Shown here: one piece after another, positions 4,935 to 19,926 of the stretch | Layout of the letters: the number at the start of each line of letters is the position of its first letter | How positions within the stretch are numbered: position 1 is the first letter of the stretch | Origin: Anaerolineae bacterium | GTDB lineage: Bacteria > Chloroflexota > Anaerolineae > JAAYZQ01 | Assembly: GCA_041559855.1 (NCBI GenBank) | Contig: JBFFCR010000002.1 | Span: 1 to 41,935 of the forward strand | Direction: 5' to 3' | DNA length: 41,935 nt | Notes under the pieces: model-generated | Told to the model about the DNA's origin: nothing | What the model saw: the letters and a program-made list of their open reading frames with translations, nothing else | Databases searched by the model: none | Made by a program: the position numbers and the translations under genes

Positions 4935-4963
4935 AGAATACCCTGTTTTGCCTGATCCGTCAA
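4935..4963 (-). promoter_or_regulatory. Candidate sigma70-type promoter for selC (TTGACG - 17 nt - TATTCT)
   Basis: On the reverse strand, TTGACG is the complement of 4958-4963 and TATTCT is the complement of 4935-4940. The spacer is exactly 17 nt. The mature tRNA 5' end (4923) lies 12 nt downstream of the -10. Confidence 0.45.
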
Positions 4964-5034: not shown

Positions 5035-5832
5035 CTAGCGCGTGCGCCGCCGCCATTCCCGTTTGATCGTCAGATCCTGCAAACCGTTCGCGTCGTCCAC
5101 ATCTACAAAGTCCCGGAGCAAGCGGGAGAACTTGGCCGATTGGTCTAGCATGGGAAAGTGGTGGGTGTCTGCCAGCACGAGAGCCCGTGCCGTGTAATGA
5201 TTCGACTCCAGCGCGGCAGCTTGAGCGGGGTCGATGACATTGTCCTGTGCGCCATACACCGATAGCAGCGGTACATTGATATCATCAAGCGTATCAAGCA
5301 CACGTAGCCTGGCAACCGACTGCACAGTCAGTGCAATCGCATTGCGCGCAGCCTTGGGCGCCCCCATCTCGACTTCCTCGTGCGGTCGCTGCCGGTGCCA
5401 GAATACGCGAGCCAAGGCCTCATTGGGACCGGCACTGAGAAGTCGCTGGTTGATGCCATCGGCCGTCAAGGGCAGCCCCACTGTAAGCACCTTGGACACA
5501 TGATCGGGGTATCGCACGGCGAGCTCAGCCGCGACAGCAGCGCCAAGCGTGTGCCCAACCAATGGCGACCTGGAGATCCCCATCTCGTCCATGAAGGCGA
5601 GCACCATTTCAACATAGGCGTCCACAGAGTACTGCTCGCGATCTTTGGCCGAGTCGCCAAAGCCCCACAGGTCCAGAGCATACGTGCGGTACGTCACCGA
5701 CAGATCTTGCATCACGGGCACCCAGTAGCGCCATGAGCCCAACCACCCATGCAAAAAAATGATGGAGGACTTGGCACGCCCAAAGCTTTCGTAATGCAGG
5801 CGACTGCCGTTGATCAGGACAACACTCATCAC
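5035..5832 (-). CDS. Alpha/beta-fold hydrolase with a non-canonical nucleophile elbow (G-H-T-L-G)
   Basis: 265 aa. Contains the oxyanion-region motif FLHGWLGSW, ALDLWGFGDS, the elbow LVGHTLGAAV (Thr95, codon ACG, complement of 5548-5550), the acid candidate YGAQDNVID and the His candidate DTHHFPMLD. It is a paralogue of the 17111-17893 gene. Confidence 0.85.
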   Translation of the reverse strand: MMSVVLINGSRLHYESFGRAKSSIIFLHGWLGSWRYWVPVMQDLSVTYRTYALDLWGFGDSAKDREQYSVDAYVEMVLAFMDEMGISRSPLVGHTLGAAVAAELAVRYPDHVSKVLTVGLPLTADGINQRLLSAGPNEALARVFWHRQRPHEEVEMGAPKAARNAIALTVQSVARLRVLDTLDDINVPLLSVYGAQDNVIDPAQAAALESNHYTARALVLADTHHFPMLDQSAKFSRLLRDFVDVDDANGLQDLTIKREWRRRTR

Positions 5833-5882
5833 TCACCCATGTTTCGACGCAGAACAGCAATCACCTGCGACACCTGGCACTG

Positions 5883-6281
5883 CTACCTTCGGCCGTGCCG
5901 CTCCAGGATGCTGCCTACCCGCTGATTCAGCTCGTCAGGGCCGAATGGCTTAAGAATGTACTCCTCAGCACCCAACTCCAATCCATGCTTGATCTCGGTC
6001 TCTTGACCGCGCGCCGACAGAAATACCACGGGTATCTTCATGGTGGACTCCTGTGCCCGGAGCACCGCGCAGGCCTCGTACCCACTCACTGCCGGCATAC
6101 GGACATCCAGCAAGATGAGATCCGGCTGCTCCCTCTCCGCCAGCTCAATCGCCTCTTTACCATTCACGGCCTCAATCACCGTATATCCCGCAAACTGCAG
6201 GCTATAGACAACAAGAGCCCGGATATCCGGTTCGTCCTCTGCTATCAGGACCTTCTTCTTGTCAACCATGGAGCGCTCCAA
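5883..6281 (-). CDS. Stand-alone response-regulator receiver (CheY-like)
   Basis: 132 aa. Contains VLIAEDEPDIR, DLILLDVRMPAVSGYE, VVFLSARG and YILKPF. Confidence 0.9.
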   Translation of the reverse strand: MERSMVDKKKVLIAEDEPDIRALVVYSLQFAGYTVIEAVNGKEAIELAEREQPDLILLDVRMPAVSGYEACAVLRAQESTMKIPVVFLSARGQETEIKHGLELGAEEYILKPFGPDELNQRVGSILERHGRR

Positions 6282-6341
6282 CGAGATCGCCGATCACCCC
6301 ACCAGTTCCGCCCCCGCGCCTGGTCCTCCCCCGTCTCCACA

Positions 6342-9300
6342 TCACGCCGGTGTCCTTTCAGCGATGACCTTCTTGATCTCGCGAATCAGGACCTCAATAG
6401 AGAGGGGTTTGGTCAGATACTCGGCGACATCCATACCCAACACCCGAACCTTCTCCTGCTCTCGGTCCACTGGACTGTCAGTGGTCACAACCACGGGAAT
6501 CGCCCTCGTAGGCTCATTCTTTCTGAGCCGCCGCACAACCTCATACCTTTCCATCATGCGCATGCCCACGTCAAGAAGAATTAGATCTGGCCGGACCTCC
6601 TCTGCCAGAGCCAGAGCCTCCTGACCATCGGTTGCCGTCCAAACTTCGTAGCCATGGAGCAAGAGCGCCTGCTCCATGCGGGCCAGTACCTCCGGATCAT
6701 CATCCGCTACCAGCAGTCTGTGCGGTGGGTCCGTCTCGGCACGGGACAGTACCCGGTGCACGATGTCAAGCAGCTCCCGCTCGACGAACGGCTTCACGAT
6801 GTAGTCTACCGCGCCCAGAGCAAACCCCTTCTCGCTCTCAGCCAAGACTGATACAATCACTACTGGAACTCCAGAGGTCAGGGGATTCGATTTCAGTTGC
6901 TGCAGCACGACAAACCCATCGACGTCAGGGAGCATTATGTCCAGTGTGATCAGTTGAGGCTGCGCTTCCCGTGCCAGCCAAAGAGCATCTTCGCCCGTGC
7001 CCGCCAACAGAACCTGATAGCCCTCCGATTCGAGTTGCCTCCGCAACAAGAGTGCCAGGTCCCGATCATCCTCCACCACCAGGATTTTCTGCCGACGGAC
7101 AAGACCCGTCTGGAGCCCCGTACTGAGTAGCTCGGGAACCGGCTCCGGCAACTCGGTCGTAGTGAGCGGTAGCGTGAAGCTGAAGGTAGCGCCCTTGCCC
7201 GGCTCGCTTTTGACCCAGATGGCCCCGCCGAGCATTTCCACGAACATCTTGACGATTGACAGTCCCAGGCCCGTTCCGCCTGCCTCCTGAACTATGGGGT
7301 GGTCTGCCCGGAAGAATCGGTCAAAGATACGGCCAATGTCATCAGGCCCGATGCCAATGCCTGTATCGGACACATCCGTCTGCAGGAAACCACCAACAGG
7401 CTGCACAGAGACCGAGACCGTCCCGCCCTCCGGGGAGTACTGCCAGGCATTAGCAAGCAAGTTGCTCAGAACTTGGGTTACCCGAGCCTCATCGCCGCGA
7501 ATCTCGGGCAAGTCCTGCAGTTCCTCCCACACCAACCCCAGGTCCTTCTCGCGGTACTGCTCCCGGAAAGATGCAACTACCTGGCTAATGATCTGCCCCA
7601 GATCAAGCGATGCGATGGTCAACCTCATTCGGCCTGTCTCAATGCGTGAGATGTCGAGGATGTCATTGACGAGGGCCGTCAGCCGGTCGGCATTCGACTT
7701 GATGATTTTCAGGAAGCTCCGCTGCGCATCGGTCAATCCACCGGCCATACCTAGGAACAGCAGATCGGTGTATCCCTTGATCGAAGTCATCGGTGTCCGA
7801 AGCTCATGAGAGACAGTGGAAATGAACTCATTCTTCAGGCGCTCCACCTCAGCTTCGCGACTGATATCTCGCAATGCAGCAACGAGTCCAGGCATTCCCC
7901 CTGGAGAGACGATCAAGGGCGCTATTGTCACTGCCAGAACCCTCGTTCCCGCCTGCAGGCGTACGCTGCTCTCTGGCTGAACTACCGCATCCTCTCCGGC
8001 TTCCAGTTGCTGGAGTAACTCGGAGTACAGCGCCTGAGACAGGTCGCGGTGAACCTCTGTCTCGCCGAGGCCAAGCATGTGCCGAAAATGCTCCCCATGC
8101 AGTGCGATTGCAGAGATACCGAGCAACTCCTCCGCTGCCGGGTTCACCAACAACACTCGCCCGTTGTGATCCAGAACCAGGACACCATCGGCGATTGACT
8201 CGAGAATCGCGCGATTCTTTGCGGCCTCCTCTTCCTGGGACTGAAGCGCTGCCCCGAGCTGATCAGCCTGATCGATGATGAATGCGTACAAGTCCGAGTT
8301 GTTGACCGCAATCGCAATTTGCCCAGTTGCCGCGGTGACAAGCTGCAGGTGATCCGCCGTAAAGTGTCCCTCATCGGGATGGCCCAAGATAAGCACGCCC
8401 AAGACATCACCACCTCCCAATGCAAGAGGCGCGGCCACTACCGAGCGTAAGCCTGCCGTCTTCTCAGGGCCATGCTTCCAGCGAGGGTCCGCGGTTATGT
8501 CTGCAATCAGAGCCGACTCACGATGCTCAAGCACCCAACCAGCGAGCCCCACGCCAGGCCTCCATTCTGTGGGCTCTCCCTTCCGGGGGAGGCGCCGCCC
8601 CGGCTCGAGGGTTGCGCGAAGATTCAGGTTTCCAGATTCTTGATCCACCAGCAAAATTGTGCCGTAGGAAAGGTCCAGTGCACCGGCAAATAGCTGCAGG
8701 GCACGCTGCAGAACCCGTTCCAGCTCTAGCGTCGCGCCCAGCTCACTGGTAATCCGATAGAGAGTCTCGACCCGATCGCGTTCCACAGTAAGGTCTTCCA
8801 GGGCCTGCGCCAACTCTCGCGTCCGGGCTTCTACCTTCTCCTCTAGATCGCTGCTAAAGCCCACGATCTGCTGGTACAGCTGAGCATTCCGCACAGCAAC
8901 CGCGGCTTGAGCAGCCACCGTCGACAACAAGCCAAGATGCTCTTCGCGATACACATGCTCGCGCCTGTAATCCTGAACGGCGATGACGCCTAGCACACGA
9001 TCCTCGGCCATCATGGGCACGCCCAACCAGGAACGGCAGAGTCCAGCATCGATCTCCCGACCCTGCTCGCGGTATAGTCCCGCAGCACCAGTGGGGAGCA
9101 GTAACGGTCGTCCGGTGGCTATGATCGTGCCGGTCAAGCCCTCTCCTCTCTTGCATGGGCTCCAATCCTCGCGATGCTCTGGGTCCACCACAAAGGGAAA
9201 TGCCACTTCATCCCTGTCCTCATCCCACAGCGCAATGCAAAAGTTCGTCGTGTCCAGAATGCGGCTGGCCTGCTGATAGACTACACCCAGCAGGTCGTCC

Positions 9301-12300
9301 AACTCTAGCGTGGAGCTGATCGCCTGTGCCATTTCATTCAGAACATTCAACTGCTCAATGCGCTGCAGACGTTCGCGGTAGAGAGACGCGTTGTGATAGG
9401 CGACCGATGCCTGGCCGGCAACAATGCTGAGCAGATCCAGATGCTCCGAGTCAAAAGCATCCTCTCGCTCAAAGCTCTGCACTGCGATCCCGCCAATCAC
9501 GCGATCGCCAGCAGTCATCGGTACGCCTAGCCAGCTCTTAACGGGACCGGCCTCCGGAGTGAGCCCGTGCTCGTCGGCATACTGCGCGACACCCCGAGCC
9601 AGCAGGATCGGCTGCCCACTGCGTATCAATTGACCCATCAGCCCCAGGTCAATGCCCGAGTCACTCCGCGATCGACGCTGCCCGCGCTCCACAATGAACT
9701 CCAGGTAGACCTCGCGGGCATCAGGATCGTAGACGGCCAGATGGAAATTGCGCGTATTGAGGAGACTGCTGACCTGTTCATAGATCAGCTCGGTGAGCTG
9801 GCTTGTGTCCAGTGCACTACTGATCGCGCGCCCGATTTCGTTCACCATCGCCAGCTCGGCCACTCGACGCTGCGTCTGTTCGAACAGGCGCGCGTTCTCG
9901 ATTGCTATGGCCAGCTGATCCGCAGCGATCTCGAGGGCGGCCGCATCCTGTTCACTGATTGCGCCTCGTCGCGCTCCCTCAACCTGCAGCACTCCGATCA
10001 CCCTCTGGCCAACCTTGATCGGGACTGACACACTAGCAGGAGAACTCCACCCGATCTCCTCCCAGGCCCTATCCTCAGGGAGGAGGTCACTCTCCAGCAC
10101 TATCTCACCCGTAGCAACCGCTCTACCGATCGGTCCCCCACCAGCCTCTAGGCGATAGCCAGCGGGCACAACGGCACGCAAGGCCTCGTTGGCAACAGCA
10201 AGATGTAAATCAGACGAAGCTTCATCGACCAGGAATATGCCCACGCGGTAGAACGCGAGGTACTCCTCCAACGAGTGAACAGTGGTCTCCAGTATGTCAG
10301 CGAGCTCGAGCTGGGCCGCAACACGCCGCCCGATCTCGTTCAGCGACGCCAGTCTCTGAGCAGACTGCTGTGTGCTGCTCAGCAAACGAGTGCTCTCCAA
10401 AGCCACTGCGGCCTGGTCGGCCAGCGTGGCCAACACCACGCGATCAGCTTCCCCCATGGCGAATGGCCGTTCGCTGCTCGCCGACAATACGCCAATTACC
10501 TGCTTCCCGGCCTTGATCGGAGCCAACATCATCGAGCCAACACAGACAGGACCTGACTCGAGGAGAGGCTCCTGCGCGACGTCAGGGACCACAAGCGCAG
10601 TGCCTTCTGCCGCCACTTTGCCCACCAGCCCCTCGCCAGGAGCAAAACGATAATCGAGTAGTTCTTCCAAAGACACACCATAGCTGGCCACGGCGCCGAA
10701 TTTGCCATCGAACGGATCAGGCTGGTAGATCGCCCCCATCTCGCACTGCAGGAGCAGCCCTACCGCCTTGACAACCGTGGCCAAGACCTGTTCGGGCTCC
10801 ACCAGCTGCGTTAGCGTCTGGCCAACCTCGTTGATCAGCGCCAGATTCTCCGCACGCCTCCTCGCATCGGCATACAATCTTGCGTTTTCCACCGCAAAAG
10901 CTGCCTGATTGGCAAAGATGGCGAGCACCTCTAGCGTCCGGCGGCCCGGACGAAGGCCATCCCCCGGCTCATCCACAGAGATGTGGCCAAGCAAACGCCC
11001 GCCCGCTCCCATCATAGGAGCCAACAGCATGTCCCGCGGATGCCACTGCCCCTCGTGCCACTCCCCCGTTTCGGGCATAGGCACAATCGTATGAACACCG
11101 GCCCCCCAATCATCCTGCTCCTGGAAAGGCAGGAAGTAGCACTGCCCTTGCCGGTACTCCTCCCGCAACAGGGCTTCATACCGGTCCACTGGATGCAGGA
11201 CCCGCCTCGCTTCCTCGAACACCTCAAGGGGAAGGCCAGCCGCCGCCACGCGACGAAGCATGGGGAATGAGCCTACTCGCTCCTCTACAACGCTGATCAG
11301 TACCAGGTTAAAGCCCACCGTCTCCTGGATGGCGTAGGCGACCTCCTCCAAGGTCTCTTCCAGAGGGACATCGGTGCGTAGGGTCTGGCTCACAGCCAAG
11401 AGGCCGTCCATCTGCTCGGACCGTTGACGCAGCATGTTGTTTACGCGAACCTGTTCCTCGAACCTCATGGCATTGCCGATAGCCAGGGTCGCCTGCTCAG
11501 CCAACGCCTGCATAAAGGTGAGATCATCTTGATCAAAAGCCCCGGTCTCGACATGGCGCAGGCATATCACACCAACGACCGCATCCTGGTAGGGTATAGG
11601 TACGACCAGCGCCGAGCGGGTATCGCTACGGATGCACGCTGCTCCTGCTTCCTGTGTTACATCGCGCACAATCACGGCCCTACCGCCACGCACGACCCGC
11701 TGGACCAAGCTCTCGTCGCCGAGCTGCAGAAGATGATCCTCGAGAGCGGCCTCCTCTGCCTCAGTGTAGCCTAGCGCGGCGCGGAGCACGAGACGCCCCG
11801 TATCCTGGTCCACTACCATGATGTTGCCGTGGGTGGCGCCTGTCGTCTGCTCAGCCGATTCCAAGACTGTGCCGAGGATGCGGTCCAGTTCCAGCGTGGC
11901 GTTGAGTTCTCCCATAGTGCGCTGCAGGGCCACCAGCTCATCGATTCGTGCATGCAACCGCTCGTCGGTCAGCTCATAGCGTCTCGCGTTTTCTATCACG
12001 GCGGCAGCCTGGTTGGCGAAAATGCACAGCAGGCGGACATCGTCCTCGTCGAAAGGAGTGCCGTCGGCTCTGTTGCCCACCTGGATAACGCCAAGGCGCC
12101 TCTGCCCCACACTCATGGGAGCAAAAATCGCATCGCGTAGCCCGCCAGAGCGGGTCATATCCCTCATGCCTAACTCATCGATCAGTGGCTCGTTCTCTAC
12201 ATCGTTGAGCAGCAAGAAGTCGCGCTCTTGCCACAGCTGCCACGCCAGGCTGCCTTTCGCCACCCGGAGACGATACCGCCCCACCACCTCTTGAGGCACC

Positions 12301-14042
12301 CCCAATAAAGGTGGCTGGCTGACCAACGCTTGCGCATCCTCATCGTAGAGCAAGATGCCACACATTTCCACAGACATGAGGGTGGCAATCCGTTCGCTGA
12401 TCTCAGCGTAGATCTGACCCAGATCGGATAGGGATCCTATAGCTTGGGAGATCTGATACAGACCGGAAAACTCGTGAAGCCGGCGTTCGGTCTCCGCGTG
12501 GAGCCGCGCATTCCTGATCGCAACAGCAGCTTGATTGGCAAAGATCTCGAGGATCTCCAAGTGCCCTTCGGTGTAGGCATTCGCCTGGTTGCTCACCAAC
12601 TCGAGCGTACCCACAAAGGTATCGCGGGTTCGCAGCGGCAACCCCACATAGGATCGAATCTTCACGTCGGTGGCGGTCACCTTGGGACCAACATCCGTCC
12701 GCTCCATAGTATCTGGGATGAACAACCGCTCTTTGTGCCGTGCGATCCAACCTGTGTAGCCTTCGTCGAGATGATAGAGACCGCCTGCCTCAGTCGTCAG
12801 CTGTGCATCGCCGGCAGCCCCCCTGGTGACCATCACGTCGCGAACCTCATCCCACAGGCAGATCTCGGCGCTATAGTAGTCCACCAGGTCCTTCAACCGC
12901 AGCAGGATAAGGTTGAGCGTGTGCTCCAAGTCCAAGCTGGACGACACGTCACGACTCACCTCATGGATCGTCGCCAACTCCTGCACTCGCCTATCCAGGG
13001 CTTCGTCCGTGCCCCCGTAGAGCTGAGCATTCTCCATGGCGACCACGGCCTGCACGGCAAAGTTTGACAGGAGCTCCAGATCATCTCGGTCGAAACCACT
13101 CCCGTCAAGTGCGTTCACAACTTCCAGCGCACCGACAGCGCGCCCGCGTCGGCTCAGAGGAACAGAGAGGAGCGCGCGCGCCTCGAGATCTGGGCATAGC
13201 TCCCCAACTCTACGCCAGCGCGGGTCAGCTCGAACATCACTGACAATCACCCCTTCGCCAGCCTCCACAACGGCTCCGGCGATTCCACAACCCTGCGGCA
13301 CTCGCTGCCCGACAAATGACTCTGCCAAGGGTACTTTTGCAGCGCGAAAGACCAACTCGCCGGTATCCTCATCCACTAACAGCAGCCAGCCCGCTTCGGC
13401 AGCCAGGATCTCGACGGCCTTCCGCACCACCAAGTCCAGCACGGCATCCAGTTCCAGTGTTGAACTGATGACTCGTCCGATTTCGTTTACTGTTGATAGT
13501 TGCCTGAGCCGAATTGTGGCGTCACGAACCACCCGATGTTGACGAGCATCCATCGAGACTAGATAATTGACGCCCCAGGTGAGGGCCAACCACAGGATCA
13601 TGCCGCCGACTATACTTGGAGAGAACGCGTCCCCTTCCACAAGCCAGGAAACAAGGAAGGGCGCCGTGCATAGCAGGCACACGCCAGCATTGAATACAAG
13701 CGCCCACCACAGGTCCAGGCGCGCGGCGATAACCGCCATCACGGAGGCGCCCAGCGGAACACCCGCTTCGGCGGCACCCCCGTGTGCATAGAAGGCGAGT
13801 CCTGCAAGCACTATATCGACCAAGCTCAAGACCCACCGCGTGCTGGCCTCAGGCAGCAGCCGAGGCACGACCAGATAGGCAGCCGCATGCCCAGCTATGA
13901 TCAGCATTAGCAGAACCGTCTGCGTGAGGTCCCAACCTATCACAGAGCGGAGCAGTAGGTATAGAAGAGCAAGCCTGAGGAACCAGGTCAGGACCTGCTC
14001 TAGGCGGTTTTCCTGCCAGGTATTAGAGTCAGAATTGCTCAT
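6342..14042 (-). CDS. Giant hybrid sensor histidine kinase: N-terminal multi-TM region, about 10 tandem GAF domains, PAS, HisKA, HATPase_c, and two receiver domains
   Basis: 2566 aa. Ten GAF-closing helices were counted by eye: NFAVQAVVAMENAQLY, IFANQAAVAIRNARLH, IFANQAAAVIENARRY, ALAEQATLAIGNAMRF, IFANQAAFAVENARLY, TLADQAAVALESTRLL, IAADQLAIAIENARLF, IVAGQASVAYHNASLY, TVAAQAAVAVRNAQLY and GQIAIAVNNSDLY. The PAS region reads ILESIADGVLVLDHNGRVLLVNPAAEELLG. The H-box is FISTVSHELRTPMTSIKGY, with His about aa 2079 (codon complement of 7806-7808). The N box is LLANAWQY, G1 is DTGIGI and G2 is GTGLGLSIVK. REC1 is KILVVEDD...LDIMLPDVDG...IVKPF and REC2 is LLVADDD...LLDVGMRMMERY...LTKPL. Confidence 0.95.
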   Translation of the reverse strand: MSNSDSNTWQENRLEQVLTWFLRLALLYLLLRSVIGWDLTQTVLLMLIIAGHAAAYLVVPRLLPEASTRWVLSLVDIVLAGLAFYAHGGAAEAGVPLGASVMAVIAARLDLWWALVFNAGVCLLCTAPFLVSWLVEGDAFSPSIVGGMILWLALTWGVNYLVSMDARQHRVVRDATIRLRQLSTVNEIGRVISSTLELDAVLDLVVRKAVEILAAEAGWLLLVDEDTGELVFRAAKVPLAESFVGQRVPQGCGIAGAVVEAGEGVIVSDVRADPRWRRVGELCPDLEARALLSVPLSRRGRAVGALEVVNALDGSGFDRDDLELLSNFAVQAVVAMENAQLYGGTDEALDRRVQELATIHEVSRDVSSSLDLEHTLNLILLRLKDLVDYYSAEICLWDEVRDVMVTRGAAGDAQLTTEAGGLYHLDEGYTGWIARHKERLFIPDTMERTDVGPKVTATDVKIRSYVGLPLRTRDTFVGTLELVSNQANAYTEGHLEILEIFANQAAVAIRNARLHAETERRLHEFSGLYQISQAIGSLSDLGQIYAEISERIATLMSVEMCGILLYDEDAQALVSQPPLLGVPQEVVGRYRLRVAKGSLAWQLWQERDFLLLNDVENEPLIDELGMRDMTRSGGLRDAIFAPMSVGQRRLGVIQVGNRADGTPFDEDDVRLLCIFANQAAAVIENARRYELTDERLHARIDELVALQRTMGELNATLELDRILGTVLESAEQTTGATHGNIMVVDQDTGRLVLRAALGYTEAEEAALEDHLLQLGDESLVQRVVRGGRAVIVRDVTQEAGAACIRSDTRSALVVPIPYQDAVVGVICLRHVETGAFDQDDLTFMQALAEQATLAIGNAMRFEEQVRVNNMLRQRSEQMDGLLAVSQTLRTDVPLEETLEEVAYAIQETVGFNLVLISVVEERVGSFPMLRRVAAAGLPLEVFEEARRVLHPVDRYEALLREEYRQGQCYFLPFQEQDDWGAGVHTIVPMPETGEWHEGQWHPRDMLLAPMMGAGGRLLGHISVDEPGDGLRPGRRTLEVLAIFANQAAFAVENARLYADARRRAENLALINEVGQTLTQLVEPEQVLATVVKAVGLLLQCEMGAIYQPDPFDGKFGAVASYGVSLEELLDYRFAPGEGLVGKVAAEGTALVVPDVAQEPLLESGPVCVGSMMLAPIKAGKQVIGVLSASSERPFAMGEADRVVLATLADQAAVALESTRLLSSTQQSAQRLASLNEIGRRVAAQLELADILETTVHSLEEYLAFYRVGIFLVDEASSDLHLAVANEALRAVVPAGYRLEAGGGPIGRAVATGEIVLESDLLPEDRAWEEIGWSSPASVSVPIKVGQRVIGVLQVEGARRGAISEQDAAALEIAADQLAIAIENARLFEQTQRRVAELAMVNEIGRAISSALDTSQLTELIYEQVSSLLNTRNFHLAVYDPDAREVYLEFIVERGQRRSRSDSGIDLGLMGQLIRSGQPILLARGVAQYADEHGLTPEAGPVKSWLGVPMTAGDRVIGGIAVQSFEREDAFDSEHLDLLSIVAGQASVAYHNASLYRERLQRIEQLNVLNEMAQAISSTLELDDLLGVVYQQASRILDTTNFCIALWDEDRDEVAFPFVVDPEHREDWSPCKRGEGLTGTIIATGRPLLLPTGAAGLYREQGREIDAGLCRSWLGVPMMAEDRVLGVIAVQDYRREHVYREEHLGLLSTVAAQAAVAVRNAQLYQQIVGFSSDLEEKVEARTRELAQALEDLTVERDRVETLYRITSELGATLELERVLQRALQLFAGALDLSYGTILLVDQESGNLNLRATLEPGRRLPRKGEPTEWRPGVGLAGWVLEHRESALIADITADPRWKHGPEKTAGLRSVVAAPLALGGGDVLGVLILGHPDEGHFTADHLQLVTAATGQIAIAVNNSDLYAFIIDQADQLGAALQSQEEEAAKNRAILESIADGVLVLDHNGRVLLVNPAAEELLGISAIALHGEHFRHMLGLGETEVHRDLSQALYSELLQQLEAGEDAVVQPESSVRLQAGTRVLAVTIAPLIVSPGGMPGLVAALRDISREAEVERLKNEFISTVSHELRTPMTSIKGYTDLLFLGMAGGLTDAQRSFLKIIKSNADRLTALVNDILDISRIETGRMRLTIASLDLGQIISQVVASFREQYREKDLGLVWEELQDLPEIRGDEARVTQVLSNLLANAWQYSPEGGTVSVSVQPVGGFLQTDVSDTGIGIGPDDIGRIFDRFFRADHPIVQEAGGTGLGLSIVKMFVEMLGGAIWVKSEPGKGATFSFTLPLTTTELPEPVPELLSTGLQTGLVRRQKILVVEDDRDLALLLRRQLESEGYQVLLAGTGEDALWLAREAQPQLITLDIMLPDVDGFVVLQQLKSNPLTSGVPVVIVSVLAESEKGFALGAVDYIVKPFVERELLDIVHRVLSRAETDPPHRLLVADDDPEVLARMEQALLLHGYEVWTATDGQEALALAEEVRPDLILLDVGMRMMERYEVVRRLRKNEPTRAIPVVVTTDSPVDREQEKVRVLGMDVAEYLTKPLSIEVLIREIKKVIAERTPA
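8300..13490 (-). other. Approximate extent of the 10 x GAF array inside the giant kinase (about 173 aa per unit)
   Basis: The boundaries are estimated from the first GAF-preceding helix (LSTVNEIGRVISSTLELD, about aa 180) and the last GAF-closing helix (about aa 1913). Coordinates are approximate, within about 60 nt. Confidence 0.6.
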
Positions 14043-14104
14043 GCCCGCAACTCACCAACCGAAGCTGCATTCACCGCAACAGCATCGTCTCTGCGCAATA
14101 CTCC

Positions 14105-14989
14105 CTACACCATCCGGCGTGCCTCGGCCGCTACCTCGGTGATCTCCCGAATGTCAGCAAAAGGCGCTGCATCGTGATGGACCACTCCCACAGCCAACGA
14201 CATCAGTGGTGCTTGGCGCATCTCGCCCATCGAACCTCCAACCTCGACAAAGCCTCGCTCCCGGTCGCGGAAGCTGTAGAACGCCCCCACTTCTTCGCCA
14301 AAGCGTTCCTTCATCCGTGCCCTGATCCCCTCTGCGGCATCGGGTGCGGTGATAATTATAAAGTCGTCTCCCCCTACATGCCCGATGAACTCAGCTCCCG
14401 TTCCGACCTCATCCACGACCTCGGAAAGCAGCATCGCGGCGAAACGCAGCACGTCATCTCCGGCCACAAAGCCATACTTGTCGTTAAAGTCCTCAAGCTG
14501 ATTGATTCCGACATAAAGAACAGCCCAGTCATGACGGCGCAGGATCTGGCGCAACTGCTCTTCAATGAGCTTGCCGCTTGGCAGACCCGTCACAGGACTG
14601 GTCAAGCTCAGCCACCCTGCACGGCGCAGAGCTCCCTCGACGCGTAGCATTAGGAGCTGCAGATCGAAGGGCTTGGTGATGTAGTCATCTGCCCCCAACT
14701 CCAGCCCGGCAATCTGGTCGCTGCGCTCATCCTTCCGAGTTAGGAAAATGATGGGGATGTGACTGGTTCGCAGGTTGCCTCGCAATCTCCGGCACACCTC
14801 GTACCCGTCGATATCAGGCAGCACGATGTCCAGGATCACTAGGCTCGGCAGTTTACGGCGGCAGACCTCCAGGGCTTCCTCGCCGCGGGCAACCGCCACC
14901 GCCTCGTAGTCTTGGGACTCGAAGTAGATCCGCAGCATGCTGGAGATGTCCGAGTCATCTTCAACAATGAGTAACAGCCCCTTGCTCAT
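14105..14989 (-). CDS. Response regulator: receiver domain plus a degenerate GGDEF-like domain (motif GGDDF)
   Basis: 294 aa. The REC part reads LLIVEDDSD, LVILDIVLPDIDGYE, IIFLTRK and YITKPF. The C-terminal GGDEF fold reads VTGLPSGKL...VLYVGINQLEDFNDKYGFVAGDDVL...FIGHVGGDDFIII. The GGDDF motif is aa 206-210, nt 14360-14374. Confidence 0.9.
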   Translation of the reverse strand: MSKGLLLIVEDDSDISSMLRIYFESQDYEAVAVARGEEALEVCRRKLPSLVILDIVLPDIDGYEVCRRLRGNLRTSHIPIIFLTRKDERSDQIAGLELGADDYITKPFDLQLLMLRVEGALRRAGWLSLTSPVTGLPSGKLIEEQLRQILRRHDWAVLYVGINQLEDFNDKYGFVAGDDVLRFAAMLLSEVVDEVGTGAEFIGHVGGDDFIIITAPDAAEGIRARMKERFGEEVGAFYSFRDRERGFVEVGGSMGEMRQAPLMSLAVGVVHHDAAPFADIREITEVAAEARRMV

Positions 14990-15151
14990 CCTCTTCCCCC
15001 CTACGCGTTACTCGCGTACACTCTCAGCCAATCGCAACGCGCTGCTCGCGTGCCCCATACTGGTCACATTGCCCGTAGTGCTTCTCAACAGTCCTCACCC
15101 ACAGAACCCCAAGTGATGAACGAACCATCGGAGCCCGCCAGCGACAGATCC

Positions 15152-16405
15152 TCATTCCCGGGGCTGATACAGCGGAGGGTGGAACCCCGCATCAGGCCAA
15201 CGCAGATGATCGCTATCCTCATAACACACATTCTTCGACACTACAGAGCGCTCATCCGAGCGAACCAACACCACGTCCGACTCGATCATTCTTCCTGGAT
15301 AGATCGTCAGGCCCGCCCCAATGCGACAGTGATGGCCTACGCATCCCCCCAACACCGTCGAGCCGACATCCTGAAGCTCTCCGCGATGCTGCGTCCTGAC
15401 AGGCCTCCGGATCAGATTGAAATCAGTGAACGTGGTGCCCGCACCTATGAACGAGTCCCGCCCAACCACGCAGAACTGCAGGCACGCATTCTGTGCAACC
15501 ATGGTGTCTTCCATCAGCGTGGACATGAACAGAGAAGAGCGAAACGGCAGGTAGCAGCGATCCCCCACCACGCTGATTAGCAACTCGTTCCCGTGTAGGA
15601 TACTGACATGATTGCCGATGATGCAGTTAGAAATGACCACGCCAGCGCCAATGTATACATTGTCGCCGATGATGGTCGGACCCTGGATCACGGCTGTCGG
15701 ATCGATCTGGGAGTTCCGCCCCACCTTGACCAGATGCGAGCACGACAGAATCTGCCTGCGCTCGAGCAGTGACCGCCAAAAGATCTTTGCCAGCACGCTG
15801 AAGCGATTCAGGCTGCGCTCCAGGCGTGCGCCCTCCGCGAGTACCCCAAACAGGCAGTTCGCCACATAGACGTGCACCCAGTTCTCGATCGCTAGAAAAG
15901 CACGTAGCGGAATCTGGAATACAAGATCCCCTTTCTCCGTCGACATGTGCGTCGGGACCCGATAGGAGCCGAACTCGTATGCCCCGCAGTCGATCACTAG
16001 CGGCCGCGTCCTCCGCTCCAGCCCCCGCGGGTAGTACCACATGTTCGCCACATACACGTCCCCTTCTCGTCGAATTCCGCTCTGGAGAGGTAGAACGTGC
16101 GCGGTGATCACCTCGTCGTCGAGGGCAAAGGCAACCCGGCATGCCTTACCCAAGGCGCGTGCTTGCGTCAGGAACGCCTCGACAAACCCATCGTCAAAGA
16201 ACAGGTTGTCCTGGTAGACTAGAGTCTCTTGTGACCCGGCATCCGGGATCTGCCTCATCGACCCCACCTCTATCTCAGAGTCGCAATAGGGATCCAGGAT
16301 GTCTTTCTGGTGAAGCCAGAGCGGCTTGTTCAACACCCGAAGCTCGCGCGCCGGCTCGTTGAAGGGAGGAATCTCTCTTTCGTCGCGAACGATGACCTTT
16401 CTCAT
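15152..16405 (-). CDS. Left-handed beta-helix (hexapeptide-repeat) protein, similar to GlmU-like putative sugar nucleotidyl/acyl-transferases
   Basis: 417 aa. The C-terminal half has imperfect hexapeptide repeats (IIGDNVYIGAGVVISNCIIGNHVSILHG, VGRDSFIGAGTTF, LGGCVGHHCRIGAGLTIYPG). The N-terminus (KVIVRDEREIPPFNEPARELRVLNKPL) resembles the alternative GlmU-like 'putative sugar nucleotidyl transferase' family. The family assignment is tentative. Confidence 0.7.
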   Translation of the reverse strand: MRKVIVRDEREIPPFNEPARELRVLNKPLWLHQKDILDPYCDSEIEVGSMRQIPDAGSQETLVYQDNLFFDDGFVEAFLTQARALGKACRVAFALDDEVITAHVLPLQSGIRREGDVYVANMWYYPRGLERRTRPLVIDCGAYEFGSYRVPTHMSTEKGDLVFQIPLRAFLAIENWVHVYVANCLFGVLAEGARLERSLNRFSVLAKIFWRSLLERRQILSCSHLVKVGRNSQIDPTAVIQGPTIIGDNVYIGAGVVISNCIIGNHVSILHGNELLISVVGDRCYLPFRSSLFMSTLMEDTMVAQNACLQFCVVGRDSFIGAGTTFTDFNLIRRPVRTQHRGELQDVGSTVLGGCVGHHCRIGAGLTIYPGRMIESDVVLVRSDERSVVSKNVCYEDSDHLRWPDAGFHPPLYQPRE

Positions 16406-16414
16406 GTCAGCATG

Positions 16415-17065
16415 CTAGTCCAGGGGCTTCTTCTCAATTATGTAGGTGCAGCTCGGGTCCCCCATGGCGATACAACTGATCTCCTCCACTCGAATGTTCT
16501 TTCCTCCGGTGACCCAGTGCAGCCCCTCCTGGAGCAGTCCCAGGCCCGCGTGGCAGATCGGCACCTCGGCTGTTCGTCCCCAACAGACAGGGCAACGGTC
16601 AATGTGATATAGAAAGCGAGTCGACTCCTCTTCGAGACGCACGACCTGATCACTCGTCTTGTTAAAGGTCTCCGCCATCGCGTTCAAGCCTATCTTCATC
16701 TTGATACCCAGCGGCAAGAGACGGAAAGCAAGGTCGCTGACACCCAACACCGCACCGAAATCCTTGAGTGCGTAGTAGAGGCCCGCCCGACCGGCCCGGA
16801 TCGCCAACCCCTTTCCACCTCTGGGCCCATACATATCCTCCAAAGCTTGGTTGAGTGCAGACATCTCCTCAAAGCTCCAGCCCAGATCCAGGTTATTTGG
16901 TGGATAGTTGTTGATGAGGTGGCGCAGCCTGGCAAGATTGAGCACTGCATTCACGCCATTCTTGCCCATTACGTCCTCCAGGGCAAGTAGCATCATCCTT
17001 CCCATCTTGTTGGGCCAGTAGTATTGAGGTCGTGGTACTTCGGTTGCTTGTGGCTCGGTCGTCAT
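16415..17065 (-). CDS. V4R (4-vinyl reductase-type) domain protein, putative small-molecule binding
   Basis: 216 aa. The C-terminal V4R signature with conserved Cys reads IDRCPVCWGRTAEVPICHAGLGLLQEGLHWVTGG...VEEISCIAMGDPSCTYII. Confidence 0.8.
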   Translation of the reverse strand: MTTEPQATEVPRPQYYWPNKMGRMMLLALEDVMGKNGVNAVLNLARLRHLINNYPPNNLDLGWSFEEMSALNQALEDMYGPRGGKGLAIRAGRAGLYYALKDFGAVLGVSDLAFRLLPLGIKMKIGLNAMAETFNKTSDQVVRLEEESTRFLYHIDRCPVCWGRTAEVPICHAGLGLLQEGLHWVTGGKNIRVEEISCIAMGDPSCTYIIEKKPLD

Positions 17066-17110
17066 CCCAGTACACTCCCGTTCAAACAGCCAACACTCAT
17101 AGCAAATCGG

Positions 17111-17893
17111 TCAGTCTGAGAAAAAGCCCCGTGCTGTCGAATAGAATGCATCTGGTTCGTCCAACATGGGGAAGTGCCTGGCACTCTGCATCATTACCAC
17201 ACGCGCGCCCGAAACCTTCTCCAACAGCTCAGCCTGCCGCGGATCGACGATCTTGTCCCCCCGTCCGTACACGCCAAGGGCCGGCATGCGCAGTGCGTGC
17301 AGCCGGGGACGAAGATCCGTGTGATGCAAAGAATGAATGCTCCACAAGAACGATTCCAGCGTCATCCTTGAAAGGTCTCGCATCAGCATCCCGTACCACT
17401 CGCTCCAACTTGCTGCGATCCACGGAGCGAACAGCCTGATGCCTAGACGCAGCAGTGACGGCGAGTTCCAGACGAGAAAGGCAATCCAAGGAAAGCCCGC
17501 CAGCTTGAGGAACAAGTTCAGCGAGCGACCATCTATTGGAGAGCCGACCATCGCGACCTTGCTGACGCGTTGAGGCCGATCCAGGGCCAGCTTTAGGGCT
17601 ACAGTGCCTCCCATCGAGTGCCCCATCACCGGCGCAGCCTGAATACCCAGTCTTTCCATGAACTGCTCGACCAGCGCCACAAAGTCAGAGATGTTGTAGC
17701 TCTCCCGACGCTTGTCCGACTCACCGAATCCCCAAAAATCCAGAGCATAGGTTCGATGGTGAGATGCCAGAGCCTCCATGGTGCCTAGCCAGCAGCCCCA
17801 GGATCCAAGCCAGCCATGTAAGAGGATTACCGGCGTGCCTCGGCCGTAGGCTTCATAGTGTACGACACCCTGTTCAGTGACGATCGAACTCAA
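17111..17893 (-). CDS. Alpha/beta-fold hydrolase with a canonical GHSMGG elbow
   Basis: 260 aa. Contains LLHGWLGSW, ALDFWGFGES, VMGHSMGGTVA (Ser93), YGRGDKIVD and SARHFPMLD. It is a paralogue of the 5035-5832 gene. Confidence 0.9.
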   Translation of the reverse strand: MSSIVTEQGVVHYEAYGRGTPVILLHGWLGSWGCWLGTMEALASHHRTYALDFWGFGESDKRRESYNISDFVALVEQFMERLGIQAAPVMGHSMGGTVALKLALDRPQRVSKVAMVGSPIDGRSLNLFLKLAGFPWIAFLVWNSPSLLRLGIRLFAPWIAASWSEWYGMLMRDLSRMTLESFLWSIHSLHHTDLRPRLHALRMPALGVYGRGDKIVDPRQAELLEKVSGARVVMMQSARHFPMLDEPDAFYSTARGFFSD

Positions 17894-17933
17894 GCTCTCT
17901 CCTCAGCCGTGCGCCGCGCCGCTGGGTTAGACT

Positions 17934-18305
17934 CTAGATCAGCCGTTCCAGGTCCTCGGCCGCCCGGCGCATGTCCAGGAAGACCAGACCTAGTTTGGCA
18001 TCCTTGCGGGCCAACACGGTGAGTACGGCCTCTTCGCCTACTGCGGAAAGGATCACGTACCCGTTTGCCCCGCGGACGTACACCTGATCTAGCACTCCGC
18101 GTCCCAACTCGCCGGCAATCCGCTCACCAAGACTGAGCATGGCAGCGCTCATGGCAGAGACGCGGTCCTCCTCAACGTCCGGCGGCAGTGCAGAAGCGAT
18201 AATGAGGCCATCCACACTCACCAAGGCCGACGCTTCGATGTCCGGTGTGCTGATCTGCAGGTCTTTCAAACGCGCAACCATCTGCTCCGTGCGGGATAGT
18301 GCCAT
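17934..18305 (-). CDS. Roadblock/LC7 domain protein (MglB/CvnB-like)
   Basis: 123 aa. Contains ASALVSVDGLIIASALPPDVEEDRVSAMSAAMLSLGERIAGELG...VYVRGANGYVILSAVGEEAVLTVLA, the typical Roadblock pattern. Confidence 0.9.
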   Translation of the reverse strand: MALSRTEQMVARLKDLQISTPDIEASALVSVDGLIIASALPPDVEEDRVSAMSAAMLSLGERIAGELGRGVLDQVYVRGANGYVILSAVGEEAVLTVLARKDAKLGLVFLDMRRAAEDLERLI

Positions 18306-18359
18306 TGGTGCTTTCCCTCCTTACAAGCGGATGGTCCCCCACCACCCACCTGCGCCCAC

Positions 18360-18890
18360 CTACCCGGGGGTAGTATCCAGTATCGTGTACAGCAGCTCTA
18401 GAAGAACGCTCTTTACACTCTCTATGTCCGTCGCAACGCAAGGTAGAAGCTTGATATCAGGACGCACGCGCAGCGCGATTCGAAGATCTTCAGGCGACCA
18501 GGCGTCCTCCATGTCCTGCTTGTTTGCCGCCACCACATACGGCGTAGTCGCATACCTGCGAAAGATGTCCAGAATCCGCCTCGCCTCACGGAACGTCTCG
18601 GGACGAACGCTATCCACCAGGACCACAAAGCCCAGCATCCCCTCCGAGAGAATTTCCCACATAAAGTCAAAGCGCTTCTGCCCAGGCGTACCAAAGAGAT
18701 AGAGAACCAGATCTTCGTCTACAGTGATGCGTCCAAAGTCCATGGCAACCGTGGTCTGCTTCTTGACACGTGACGTCTCATCTGTGATCTCGCGCTCGGT
18801 TGACACGACCTCGATTTCGCTGACGCTACTGATGAAAGCGGTCTTGCCTGCATTGAACGGCCCGGTGATGACCATCTTGACTGTCTGCAT
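18360..18890 (-). CDS. Small Ras-like GTPase (MglA/CvnD-like 'ATP/GTP-binding protein')
   Basis: 176 aa. G1 is GPFNAGKT, the switch region is TTVAMDFG, G3 is LYLFGTPGQKRF and G4 is AANKQD. Confidence 0.9.
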   Translation of the reverse strand: MQTVKMVITGPFNAGKTAFISSVSEIEVVSTEREITDETSRVKKQTTVAMDFGRITVDEDLVLYLFGTPGQKRFDFMWEILSEGMLGFVVLVDSVRPETFREARRILDIFRRYATTPYVVAANKQDMEDAWSPEDLRIALRVRPDIKLLPCVATDIESVKSVLLELLYTILDTTPG

Positions 18891-18973
18891 CGTACTTTTG
18901 CCTGCTCCGTTGTCGTTGTAGTTTTGGCTCGGGTCAGGATCGATGGCTCACCTTCCCGGTTGATGGAGCAGGA

Positions 18974-19801
18974 TCACAACCGCTTAATCCGGTCTATCAA
19001 CTTGCGTATGACCGAGCGTTTCACAGCAGGAGGGCGTCCGATCACAGTCTCTACCGCCGACGAAGGGGGCCTGGCAGCCGGGACGCCTTCGGGCACCAGT
19101 ACCTCCACCAGTCCCGCCTGCAAGAGGCCATAGATGATCCTGCGAATCTGAAAGTCGTCCATGCCAATGCGCTGTGCAATCTGCCTGATGGAGTTTCGCG
19201 GGTTTATGTAGGAAATGACCCGCCACTCGTCCACACTCAGATTTATGTTGCGCAACTGCGCTTGGGGACGGTCCGTGAACTTTAGCGCGACACCCAAATC
19301 TGGAAGCTCATCTTGAAGACGCTCCCACTCCTTCACACGGCGGCTGCCCTCCAAGATGATGTTCTCCAGATTGATCGACGCTGTTATCGCATCGTCAGAG
19401 GGCAACTGGTTCGGCTCAAAGTGAAATAGGCCATCGGTCCACGTGAATAGACCATAGACGGTATCCAGGATGTCAGTGCGAATGCTTCCTACAATATCTG
19501 GCTGCGTGACGTGGCCAGCACTAATCAGAAGCATACCCAGTTCTTTGTCCGACTGCGTTCCCGCACGCGCCCGGATGATCTTTGCGCGCTCTTCGGAAAG
19601 CTTCCCACCCCGGGCAAGCACGCTGGCAAGGTGCCCATCCTTGCCGCTCATCGTAGAGTACACCAGTTTTCCTTCGCGAAAGAACAGGGTAGTGATGCCT
19701 GAAGGCACCTGAATCGTGAGCGCCCCGGTCTTGCGTGCAAGGTGGATCAGGTTCAACAATTGGGTCGTGCTAAAGTCCTTGAGGTTCCCTTTCAGCGCCA
19801 T
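18974..19801 (-). CDS. DUF4388 (PATAN-like) domain protein with a C-terminal winged-helix-like segment
   Basis: 275 aa. The N-terminus GNLKDFSTTQLLNLIHLARKTGALTI is the DUF4388 signature. The C-terminal LSVDEWRVISYINPRNSIRQIAQRIGMDDFQIRRIIYGLLQAGLVEV looks like a DUF742/MarR-type wHTH. The extreme C-terminus, KRSVIRKLIDRIKRL, is amphipathic and basic. Confidence 0.85.
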   Translation of the reverse strand: MALKGNLKDFSTTQLLNLIHLARKTGALTIQVPSGITTLFFREGKLVYSTMSGKDGHLASVLARGGKLSEERAKIIRARAGTQSDKELGMLLISAGHVTQPDIVGSIRTDILDTVYGLFTWTDGLFHFEPNQLPSDDAITASINLENIILEGSRRVKEWERLQDELPDLGVALKFTDRPQAQLRNINLSVDEWRVISYINPRNSIRQIAQRIGMDDFQIRRIIYGLLQAGLVEVLVPEGVPAARPPSSAVETVIGRPPAVKRSVIRKLIDRIKRL

Positions 19802-19885
19802 CTTGACCTACCCTTGTATGAGTTGTCCCTCCAGCCCCGGCACAGGCGCCCAGACCCAATGAGGTTCCATGATGCCCTGGGGGCT

Positions 19886-19917
19886 GTCTCATGGCCAATT
19901 ATACCCCGTCTCATGGC
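19886..19917. repeat. Two copies of a 10-bp direct repeat, GTCTCATGGC, that bracket the -10 hexamer; candidate operator
   Basis: Exact copies sit at 19886-19895 and 19908-19917, 22 bp apart start to start (about two helical turns). The TATAAT complement (19898-19903) lies between them. Confidence 0.5.
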
Positions 19918-19926
19918 TTTAGTCAA
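19898..19926 (-). promoter_or_regulatory. Near-consensus sigma70-type promoter (TTGACT - 17 nt - TATAAT) for the minus-strand signalling cluster
   Basis: On the reverse strand, TTGACT is the complement of 19921-19926 and TATAAT is the complement of 19898-19903. The spacer is exactly 17 nt. The promoter lies about 97 nt upstream of the ATG at 19801. Confidence 0.6.

Follow-up and report, generated by a model that had tools for sequence, protein, structure and literature searches.

The Anaerolineae are filamentous bacteria of sediments, bioreactors and wastewater; the class is abundant, and most of it is uncultured. We analysed a 41,935-nt stretch of DNA from one such bacterium (assembly GCA_041559855.1, contig JBFFCR010000002.1, positions 1 to 41,935 of the forward strand), referred to below as the window. 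Ten co-directional open reading frames (ORFs) run along its minus strand from position 19801 to position 5035, and encode a small Ras-like GTPase together with a PATAN (PatA_N/DUF4388) protein, a Roadblock protein, a stand-alone V4R protein, two alpha/beta hydrolases, a left-handed beta-helix (LbH) protein and a set of phosphorelay proteins. To our knowledge, small Ras-like GTPases are rare and poorly understood in bacteria, and experimental work has been confined to the MglA polarity switch and the actinobacterial conservons. Comparison with related genomes suggests that the array is a signalling operon built around the GTPase switch, and gene arrangements place the V4R protein within the GTPase module, which is the main new finding of this work. 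The features of the array are listed here in the direction of transcription.

19898..19926, minus strand: sigma-70-type promoter of the operon, TTGACT-N17-TATAAT (11/12 positions; hexamers kept in 57/61 relatives)
19802..19890, minus strand: putative 5′ leader of about 90 nt, placed from the promoter position
18974..19801, minus strand: PATAN protein with a weak winged helix-turn-helix (wHTH)-like region and a conserved C-terminal basic helix (PF14332, E 4e-27)
18360..18890, minus strand: small Ras-superfamily GTPase, MglA family, Group 5-like (Pfam ATP_bind_1/Arf/Ras, E 6e-19)
17934..18305, minus strand: Roadblock/LC7 protein (MglB/CvnB-type), presumed platform for GTPase-activating protein (GAP) or guanine-nucleotide exchange factor (GEF) activity (Robl_LC7, E 7e-19)
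17111..17893, minus strand: alpha/beta hydrolase 1 (Abhydrolase_1, E 2e-33)
16415..17065, minus strand: stand-alone V4R protein, presumed small-molecule sensor (Pfam V4R, E 3e-8)
15152..16405, minus strand: LbH (hexapeptide) protein (Hexapep, E 2e-17)
14990..15151, no strand: largest intergenic gap (162 nt), the slot of an acyl-ACP (acyl carrier protein)-reductase-like gene in most relatives (55/70)
14105..14989, minus strand: response regulator, REC plus degenerate GGDEF (REC, E 1e-27; partial GGDEF)
6342..14042, minus strand: membrane-anchored hybrid histidine kinase (Pfam: 10 GAF, PAS, HisKA, HATPase_c, 2 REC)
5883..6281, minus strand: single-domain CheY-like response regulator (Response_reg, E 2e-29)
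5035..5832, minus strand: alpha/beta hydrolase 2 (Abhydrolase_1, E 7e-24)

An earlier note, made from the letters of this stretch, had described ten consecutive minus-strand genes with gaps of 9-162 nt behind a single near-consensus promoter. The ORF coordinates and gaps were re-derived and agree with that description (83, 54, 40, 45, 9, 162, 62, 60 and 50 nt, in order), as do the Pfam matches with the domain make-up it named for all ten products. The promoter was likewise found, at 19926..19898 (-), in a 287-nt divergent intergenic region opposite a DUF3048 lipoprotein gene. Promoter-like sites in the region are at chance level overall (6 found, 6.5 expected). Upstream of the PATAN gene, however, TTGAC[T/A/G] and TATAAT with a 17-nt spacer are retained in 57 of 61 relatives, where the -10 hexamer ends 55-238 nt ahead of the start codon. 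Within 150 nt 5′ of the internal genes, a site matching at least 11/12 positions was seen once in several hundred cases and none was conserved, though weaker internal promoters may lie below this threshold. Since the hexamers are conserved ahead of the PATAN gene and no conserved site precedes the internal genes, we see a strong phylogenetic footprint of one main promoter for the array. Internal terminators, raised in the earlier note as a possible sign of independent transcripts, were looked for in the intergenic gaps of the array, and nothing terminator-like was found. The 5′ leader gave no Rfam match, and its predicted folding stability is not unusual when compared with shuffled sequence (z = -0.4). 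Past the last array gene lies a tRNA-SeC gene (anticodon TCA) at 4825-4923 (-), identified by Rfam (tRNA-Sec, 67 bits) and in agreement with ARAGORN; a weak promoter-like site at 4963..4935 probably serves it. The tRNA-SeC gene is followed by an unrelated Wzy_C membrane protein gene, so the array is well delimited, and its ten genes probably form a conserved, co-transcribed unit.

A genome scan seeded with the V4R alignment found relatives in 219 species-level genomes, and the best 80 loci (cited by L numbers) were compared. They come from metagenome-assembled genomes (MAGs) labelled Anaerolineales, Thermoflexales, Ardenticatenaceae, Promineifilaceae and Caldilineae. Synteny was assessed by tblastn of the ten window proteins against related loci. 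The recurring order, always on one strand, is PATAN, GTPase, (Roadblock), hydrolase 1, V4R, LbH, (reductase-like), REC-GGDEF, kinase, REC and hydrolase 2, with the genes in brackets present in only some of the loci. The earlier note had allowed that the genes might be adjacent in this genome alone; the order is in fact kept, with the PATAN, GTPase, hydrolase 1, LbH and REC-GGDEF genes in their expected places around V4R in 46 of the 52 loci that have enough flanking sequence. The lowest identities to the window proteins are 50% for PATAN, 49% for hydrolase 1, 49% for LbH and 57% for V4R, and the GTPase is the most conserved protein of the cluster (74-90% identity). The genes flanking the cluster vary by lineage. 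The lineage of the window is itself unusual, in that it has the Roadblock gene inside the main cluster and has lost the reductase-like gene. At greater distance, an Anaerolineales cluster with a V4R protein only about 40% identical (L173, 3565-10736) comprises PATAN, GTPase, hydrolase, V4R, LbH, reductase-like, REC-GGDEF and hydrolase 2 genes, and is followed by AIM24 and LiaF-like genes.

Smaller arrangements of the same partners are found away from the main cluster. Triads of PATAN, GTPase and V4R genes stand alone between housekeeping genes at L037 and L084, and tetrads that also include Roadblock stand alone at L103, L147 and L153. In three MAGs (those of L050, L066 and L085) the main cluster is without a canonical Roadblock gene; a separate Roadblock, 77-78% identical to that of the window, is encoded away from it, directly 5′ of a paralogous V4R gene and a second REC-degenerate-GGDEF gene. 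A metagenome scan for Roadblock orthologues (72-96% identity) gave 53 loci with enough downstream sequence to be scored. The gene directly downstream of Roadblock is V4R at 21/53 loci, hydrolase 1 at 4/53 (the arrangement of the window, with V4R one gene away), CTP synthase (pyrG) with no signalling neighbour at 20/53, and something else at 8/53, which leaves V4R adjacent or one gene off in about half of these orthologues. Loci with pyrG directly after Roadblock include L093, L095, L096, L113, L117, L124, L136, L144, L160, L163-L166 and others. Roadblock-V4R pairs with gaps of 11-17 nt are still seen where V4R identity has fallen to 38-50% (L172, L175). No fusion of V4R with Roadblock or with the GTPase was found in an exhaustive profile search.

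Because several independent gene arrangements (triads, tetrads, and Roadblock-V4R mini-clusters and pairs) bring these genes together, the V4R protein is assigned on gene linkage to the GTPase module. At the core of the operon, an MglA-family GTPase is closely linked to a PATAN protein, and a stand-alone V4R protein is tied by gene arrangement to that pair and to Roadblock. Hydrolase 1, the LbH protein and, in most relatives, the reductase-like enzyme surround this core; the REC-GGDEF protein and hydrolase 2 are conserved as well, and in most lineages the kinase and the single REC protein are added. Gene order further points to tight sub-linkages within the array, namely PATAN-GTPase, Roadblock-V4R, hydrolase 1-V4R-LbH and REC-GGDEF-(kinase-REC)-hydrolase 2, and it is V4R that bridges them.

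Both the Roadblock and the GTPase proteins match their own families in profile hidden Markov model searches. PDB matches for Roadblock include 7f8m (E 9e-31), the Asgard Roadblock 7yh1, CvnB5 (3leq, E 5.5e-9) and MglB (E 3e-3). Its D32-G33 pair is invariant in nine sequences, and a conserved Asp-Gly pair is a feature of the Roadblock partners of Group 2-5 GTPases (PMC4316618). The earlier description of Roadblock as a member of the cluster holds good for the window but does not extend to most relatives, where it is encoded elsewhere; the gene lies inside the main cluster only in the clade of the window and at L060. A second, very divergent Roadblock-like gene was seen in the slot between GTPase and hydrolase 1 at L027, L030, L031 (8667-9056), L033, L036, L051 and L061. 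Its product, about 129 aa long, shares 24% identity with the Roadblock of the window and matches Robl_LC7 with E 0.0013. As a canonical Roadblock is encoded elsewhere in the MAGs of L051 and L061, these may have two Roadblock proteins, like the MglB and MglC of Myxococcus.

The motifs assigned to the GTPase in the earlier note are all three present (G1 GPFNAGKT, G3 GTPGQ and G4 NKQD). GTPGQ and NKQD are invariant in 66/66 orthologues, G1 takes the form GPF[NSA][AS]GKT, and switch I reads QTTVAMDF, with Thr-Thr where MglA has its arginine finger. The best PDB matches are weak (Asgard Arf, E 6e-7; MglA, E 1e-4). In the published classification of MglA proteins (PMC4316618), Group 1 has an intrinsic arginine finger beside the G2 threonine and a TVPGQ G3, Group 2 (CvnD) has a deviant NxFD G4 and a DAR G5, and Groups 2-5 share a GTPGQ G3 and a Thr in place of the arginine finger, with a canonical [NT]KxD G4 in Groups 4 and 5. 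Since it combines GTPGQ, a Thr replacing the arginine finger and a canonical NKQD G4, the window GTPase is by motif criteria an MglA-family, Group 5-like protein, and belongs to neither Group 1 nor Group 2.

PATAN genes are known to adjoin Group 1/5 mglA genes occasionally (Wuichet and Søgaard-Andersen 2015, PMC4316618). Of the DUF4388 protein with a wHTH-like tail that had been described for the window, the first part stands firmly (PatA_N, E 4e-27) and the second only weakly. When the C-terminal 116 residues were scanned alone at E <= 10, only weak wHTH families were returned, the best being MarR_2 (E 0.012). The wHTH region and a C-terminal PAVKRSVV.RLIDRI motif are nonetheless conserved in 65 PATAN sequences. 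This C-terminus (18974-19090, -) is a basic helix, PAVKRSVV.RLIDRIRRL in 65 orthologues, that lies behind a variable Pro/Ala-rich linker and may be a docking or membrane-targeting peptide.

The kinship with MglA raises the alternative of an MglA/MglB-type polarity or surface-motility switch, in which type IV pili or some other polar machine of the filament would be placed by the GTPase and the PATAN protein, with the phosphorelay taking the role of the Frz system. In Synechocystis the pilus motor PilB1 is bound by PATAN domains, mglA/mglB homologues have PATAN genes as neighbours (bioRxiv 10.1101/2021.06.11.447907; PMC4316618), and in Myxococcus MglA is regulated by REC proteins. However, the arginine finger and TVPGQ of Group 1 are missing from this GTPase, neither pilus nor motility genes were seen in the window or noticed in the sampled related loci, and such a switch leaves the V4R protein, the hydrolases and the LbH protein unexplained. 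We therefore regard it as unlikely, and return to the GTPase signalling operon and its presumed sensor.

Stand-alone V4R proteins were given 'no clear function' in a 2013 review (PMC3791482). The window protein scores 34.3 bits against PF02830, for which the cut-off is 31, and its AlphaFold2 (AF2) model has a mean confidence (pLDDT) of 87. In Foldseek searches with this model, H-NOX was the best match (template modelling score, TM, 0.62/0.71), followed by TRAPPC3/Bet3 and the phenol-sensing domains of MopR/PoxR/DmpR, with probability 1.00. The match to TRAPPC3 (E 7e-5, TM 0.4-0.5) is weaker than that to H-NOX. These results place the protein in the V4R/H-NOX/Bet3 superfamily, whose marks are a two-layer alpha/beta fold around an internal cavity and the C-terminal V4R motif. 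Taken together, the model and its matches to H-NOX, Bet3 and MopR/PoxR, each of them a ligand-binding fold, lend credit to the earlier suggestion that the V4R protein is a ligand-binding module. Five cysteines (C158, C161, C171, C198 and C206) are invariant and may form a Zn site as in PoxR or Thor-TRAPPC3, and the alignment contains no invariant histidine for heme ligation. In some orthologues of about 294 aa (P0096, P0103 and similar), an insertion of about 78 residues is seen in the C-terminal half, between the Cys-bearing segments. V4R paralogues are abundant in Anaerolineae, forming 352 clusters at 50% identity with E <= 1e-30. At L074 and L083 (6973-8311), a tandem V4R pair neighbours HAD hydrolase and CoA-transferase genes, and GTPase, Roadblock and PATAN genes are absent from the vicinity. 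Other members of the same V4R subfamily are fusions with TIR, Ser/Thr kinase-TIR or CHAT-FHA domains (P0263, P0284, P0303, P0343, P0359); such architectures are typical of conflict or programmed-death signalling.

The two hydrolases of the array differ in their active sites. In hydrolase 1, Ser93 (in GHSMGG) and Asp213 are present in 66/66 sequences and His240 in 65/66, and the enzyme is probably catalytically active. Among its 60 best PDB matches, which are esterases, BphD/HsaD-type C-C hydrolases, epoxide hydrolases and dehalogenases, the names RsbQ and KAI2 do not occur. Hydrolase 2 is a paralogue (37% identical) in which the nucleophile position is occupied by Gly in 12, Ser in 6, Thr in 4 (the window included) and Ala in 1 of 23 sequences, and the catalytic His is found in 16 of 23; as judged from this alignment, its active site is degenerate. 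The RsbQ-like receptor role once suggested for these hydrolases gains no specific support here, since hydrolase 1 resembles generic esterases and C-C hydrolases and the nucleophile of hydrolase 2 is not conserved. The N-terminal 229 aa of the LbH protein gave no Pfam match. All Foldseek matches of its AF2 model are proteins that combine a nucleotidyltransferase domain with an LbH domain (ST0452, GlmU, GMPPB, eIF2B), at TM of about 0.2, a hint only that the N-terminal domain is possibly a nucleotidyltransferase-like fold without the GxGTR motif. Between LbH and REC-GGDEF, most relatives carry a reductase-like gene of about 360-372 aa, whose product matches Shikimate_DH, the N-terminal region of PigE (E 2.5e-60) and the cyanobacterial acyl-ACP reductase family TIGR04058 (E 7e-32). 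No remnant of this gene was detected in the 162-nt gap or in the rest of the window.

These enzymes are the basis of a second alternative, namely that the centre of the operon (hydrolase 1, V4R, LbH and the acyl-ACP-reductase-like protein) is a small pathway for a lipid- or aldehyde-derived compound, with V4R carrying a hydrophobic intermediate and the GTPase and two-component genes merely regulating it. The centre block is tightly packed, with gaps of 6-45 nt, and the hydrolase 1-V4R-LbH order recurs at 41% V4R identity (L170); the near-invariant triad of hydrolase 1 and the PigE and acyl-ACP reductase matches also fit. Against this, V4R is found with PATAN, GTPase and Roadblock where these enzymes are wholly absent. 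Moreover, the reductase-like gene was lost in the window lineage, hydrolase 1 is missing in L014 and L015, and the LbH N-terminal domain is without the nucleotidyltransferase motif. A metabolic centre is thus quite unlikely, and we continue to favour the signalling operon.

The kinase is a protein of 2566 aa. Hydrophobic segments follow one another over its first 165 or so residues and are interpreted as several transmembrane (TM) helices; the H-box and two REC aspartates can be seen in its sequence. Its length and number of GAF domains differ among relatives (1584 aa in L031), and the single REC gene follows it wherever the sequence reaches. Of the REC aspartates, D11 and D54 are found in all 63 sequences of the REC-GGDEF protein and D12 in 62/63. 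The partial GGDEF match covers profile positions 5-91 of 161. The motif itself, GGDDF in the window, varies across the 63 sequences (GGDDF, SGNTF, others), and the position of the first metal-binding Asp holds Asn in 25, Asp in 22 and other residues in the remainder. On these alignments the GGDEF domain is degenerate and does not qualify as an intact diguanylate cyclase.

The earlier note saw an expanded conservon-type system here, and the operon does encode a GTPGQ-type GTPase along with a Roadblock protein and a histidine kinase. Stated as a rival, the array would be a true member of the conservons, or actinobacterial G-protein systems (AGPS, CvnA-D), expanded in Chloroflexota, with the kinase as a GPCR-like input to a Roadblock GAP, a DUF742-type GEF and the GTPase. 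In the actinobacterial systems CvnB is the GAP, CvnC is the GEF and GAF proteins modulate the kinase (PMC13343842). The match of Roadblock to CvnB5 and the occurrence of GAF sensing modules as CvnF accessory proteins are in keeping with this. As family membership, though, the proposal fails on three of four defining features: Roadblock is present, while the G4 motif is a canonical NKQD and not the NxFD of Group 2 (CvnD), no DUF742 match was obtained in the ten proteins, and the kinase is a TM-10xGAF-PAS-HisKA hybrid and not the TM-NIT-HAMP-HATPase protein of CvnA type, neither NIT nor HAMP being matched in it. The gene order and the host phylum are also different, and L173 has no kinase. The PATAN tail was considered as a hidden DUF742, but the scan at E <= 10 described above returned only its weak wHTH families, and equivalence to CvnC is unsupported at this sensitivity. 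Membership of the conservon family is accordingly very unlikely.

We assign a probability of roughly 55% to the reading that the array is a class-wide Anaerolineae signalling operon around a small Ras-like GTPase switch, working through a ligand-gated mechanism. In such a mechanism, the V4R protein would bind a small hydrophobic molecule, one that may be lipid- or acyl-derived and may be produced or altered by the enzymes encoded nearby. The V4R protein and a Roadblock dimer would together set the GTP/GDP state of the GTPase, with Roadblock acting as a GAP/GEF platform by analogy with MglB and CvnB. The kinase would integrate cytoplasmic signals via its GAF domains and phosphorylate the REC proteins, which could then gate the switch as RomR and FrzX/FrzZ do on MglA. 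As output, the GTP-bound GTPase would bind the PATAN-wHTH protein, in the role of effector or exchange factor, and so control protein localisation or transcription. The analogies behind this scheme are the actinobacterial G-protein systems, the Frz-RomR-MglA/MglB module and stand-alone H-NOX sensors. In a more specific form, which is doubtful and offered tentatively, the Bet3-fold V4R protein and the Roadblock dimer would be a ligand-gated GEF and/or GAP platform, a bacterial counterpart of TRAPP/Ragulator logic, in which a small GTPase is acted on by Bet3-fold and longin/Roadblock-fold subunits. It would be encoded in a single operon and respond to a lipid-like ligand made or removed by the hydrolase, the LbH protein and the acyl-ACP-reductase-like enzyme.

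Several observations weigh against this reading. The kinase and the single REC gene are missing from L173, where REC-GGDEF runs straight into hydrolase 2, and from the triads and tetrads; the phosphorelay may therefore be an add-on rather than an integral step. This distribution weakens the direction proposed in the earlier note, in which the GTPase feeds the phosphorelay, and suggests instead that the phosphorelay is an input or accessory to the switch. Roadblock lies outside the cluster in most genomes, and at the 20 pyrG loci noted above it has no signalling neighbour. V4R paralogues occur in unrelated contexts (radical SAM/caspase, Ser/Thr kinases, V-ATPase, TIR/CHAT fusions), so that a V4R protein alone does not imply a GTPase partner. 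Family support for the PATAN wHTH is weak, and the AF2 model of the LbH protein is poor (pLDDT 49, from a shallow alignment of 69-100% identity). Finally, every named member retrieved is an Anaerolineae or Chloroflexota MAG and none a cultured organism, and with relatives all from one class, part of the conserved order may reflect descent and not selection.

Taken to its limit, this last point gives the explanation that three unrelated modules are adjacent only through inherited gene order within one class. In addition to the taxonomic restriction, there are lineages that lack Roadblock, the reductase-like gene, hydrolase 1 or the kinase. Nevertheless, the core is intact while flanking genes change, identities down to 40-60% imply long divergence, independent rearrangements repeatedly bring V4R beside the GTPase, Roadblock and REC-GGDEF, and there is only one conserved promoter, all of which makes mere inherited adjacency highly improbable. 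An anti-phage or conflict system centred on the NTPase, to which the TIR, Ser/Thr kinase-TIR and CHAT-FHA fusions of other V4R proteins and one V4R paralogue beside a caspase-like protease might point, is most improbable, as PADLOC yielded nothing beyond generic REC matches and a weak wHTH match to CasR (E 4e-4), and high conservation (GTPase 74-90%) in a stable chromosomal context is unlike variable defence islands.

The remainder of the window is of a different character. The DUF3048 lipoprotein gene (20089-21360, +) is the divergent upstream neighbour, a position it also holds in 22 of 55 related loci; in 4 others of the 55 it is found on the strand of the cluster and downstream of it, a hint of a looser association. 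From 22497 to 41903 (+) the genes look like a sulfated-polysaccharide biosynthesis cluster, with a flippase, five sulfotransferase-family genes, a sulfatase, several glycosyltransferases, an epimerase/dehydratase and a UDP-glucose dehydrogenase. Within it, the gene at 34933-39495 (+) encodes an unusual fusion of 1520 aa, in which a Wzy_C (O-antigen ligase-like) membrane region is joined to a long TPR array and a C-terminal cyclophilin peptidyl-prolyl isomerase. On the far side of the operon, downstream of the Wzy_C gene there, an RsbW-like anti-sigma-factor kinase is encoded at 2263-2772 (-) (HATPase_c_2, E 4e-32).

If the favoured signalling operon is borne out, it would be a third, differently wired bacterial G-protein system, conserved throughout Anaerolineae, and would provide a functional lead for stand-alone V4R proteins. 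Among prokaryotes, the operon already provides a demonstrable genomic link of a V4R/Bet3-fold protein with a Roadblock protein and a Ras-superfamily GTPase, a missing piece in the discussion of eukaryogenesis. The homology of V4R and Bet3 is established (Podar et al. 2008), in a paper that makes no mention of GTPases or gene neighbourhoods. Asgard genes for GTPases, Roadblock proteins and TRAPPC3 are generally not in operons (PMC10933270), and their partners cannot be paired by gene order; the operon offers a defined cognate partner set in which TRAPP-like or Ragulator-like regulation might be sought. The earlier note knew of no described system of this composition, and full-text searches of the searchable literature similarly found neither a description of it nor a paper that connects V4R to a bacterial GTPase or Roadblock operon.

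Judged on motifs and gene content, the operon is a new small-G-protein signalling variant, analogous to conservons and to MglA/MglB and a member of neither. With the conservons it has in common the three-component operon described above and accessory sensing, by CvnF GAF proteins there and by GAF and V4R here, and the logic is likely shared in that sensor inputs modulate GAP/GEF control of a G protein. It differs in having no DUF742, NKQD in place of NxFD, another kinase architecture, REC proteins, a kinase-less relative and another host phylum. The Myxococcus MglA/MglB/RomR and Frz proteins likewise join a Ras-like GTPase and a Roadblock regulator to kinase-fed REC proteins, whereas here there is no arginine finger or TVPGQ, no CheA-type kinase and no motility genes nearby.

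Stand-alone H-NOX proteins and the MopR/PoxR/DmpR V4R sensors resemble the V4R protein in fold, and, like it, a stand-alone H-NOX sensor is a single-domain protein encoded beside its signalling partners. Unlike in H-NOX, no heme-ligand histidine is invariant here, and the partner is a GTPase/Roadblock pair and not a kinase or cyclase alone. Eukaryotic and Asgard TRAPP, in which Bet3/TRAPPC3 and longin/Roadblock-fold subunits make up a GEF for Rab GTPases, offers a parallel to the gene linkage seen here of a Bet3-fold protein with a Roadblock-fold protein and a Ras-superfamily GTPase; the Bet3 match is the weaker one, at TM 0.4-0.5 and below H-NOX. The closest precedent is the association of Group 5 MglA with MglB and PATAN (PMC4316618; Makarova et al. 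2006 as cited there), which agrees with the operon in GTPGQ, the [NT]KxD G4, Thr in place of the arginine finger, the Asp-Gly pair of Roadblock, PATAN beside the GTPase and occurrence in Chloroflexi. That work reported variable neighbourhoods and assigned no function, and partners of the V4R, hydrolase, LbH or phosphorelay kind do not appear in it, whereas we see a fixed array of 8-11 genes across the class. The association of PATAN, a Group 5-like GTPase and Roadblock is therefore already in the literature, and it is the link to V4R that is new.

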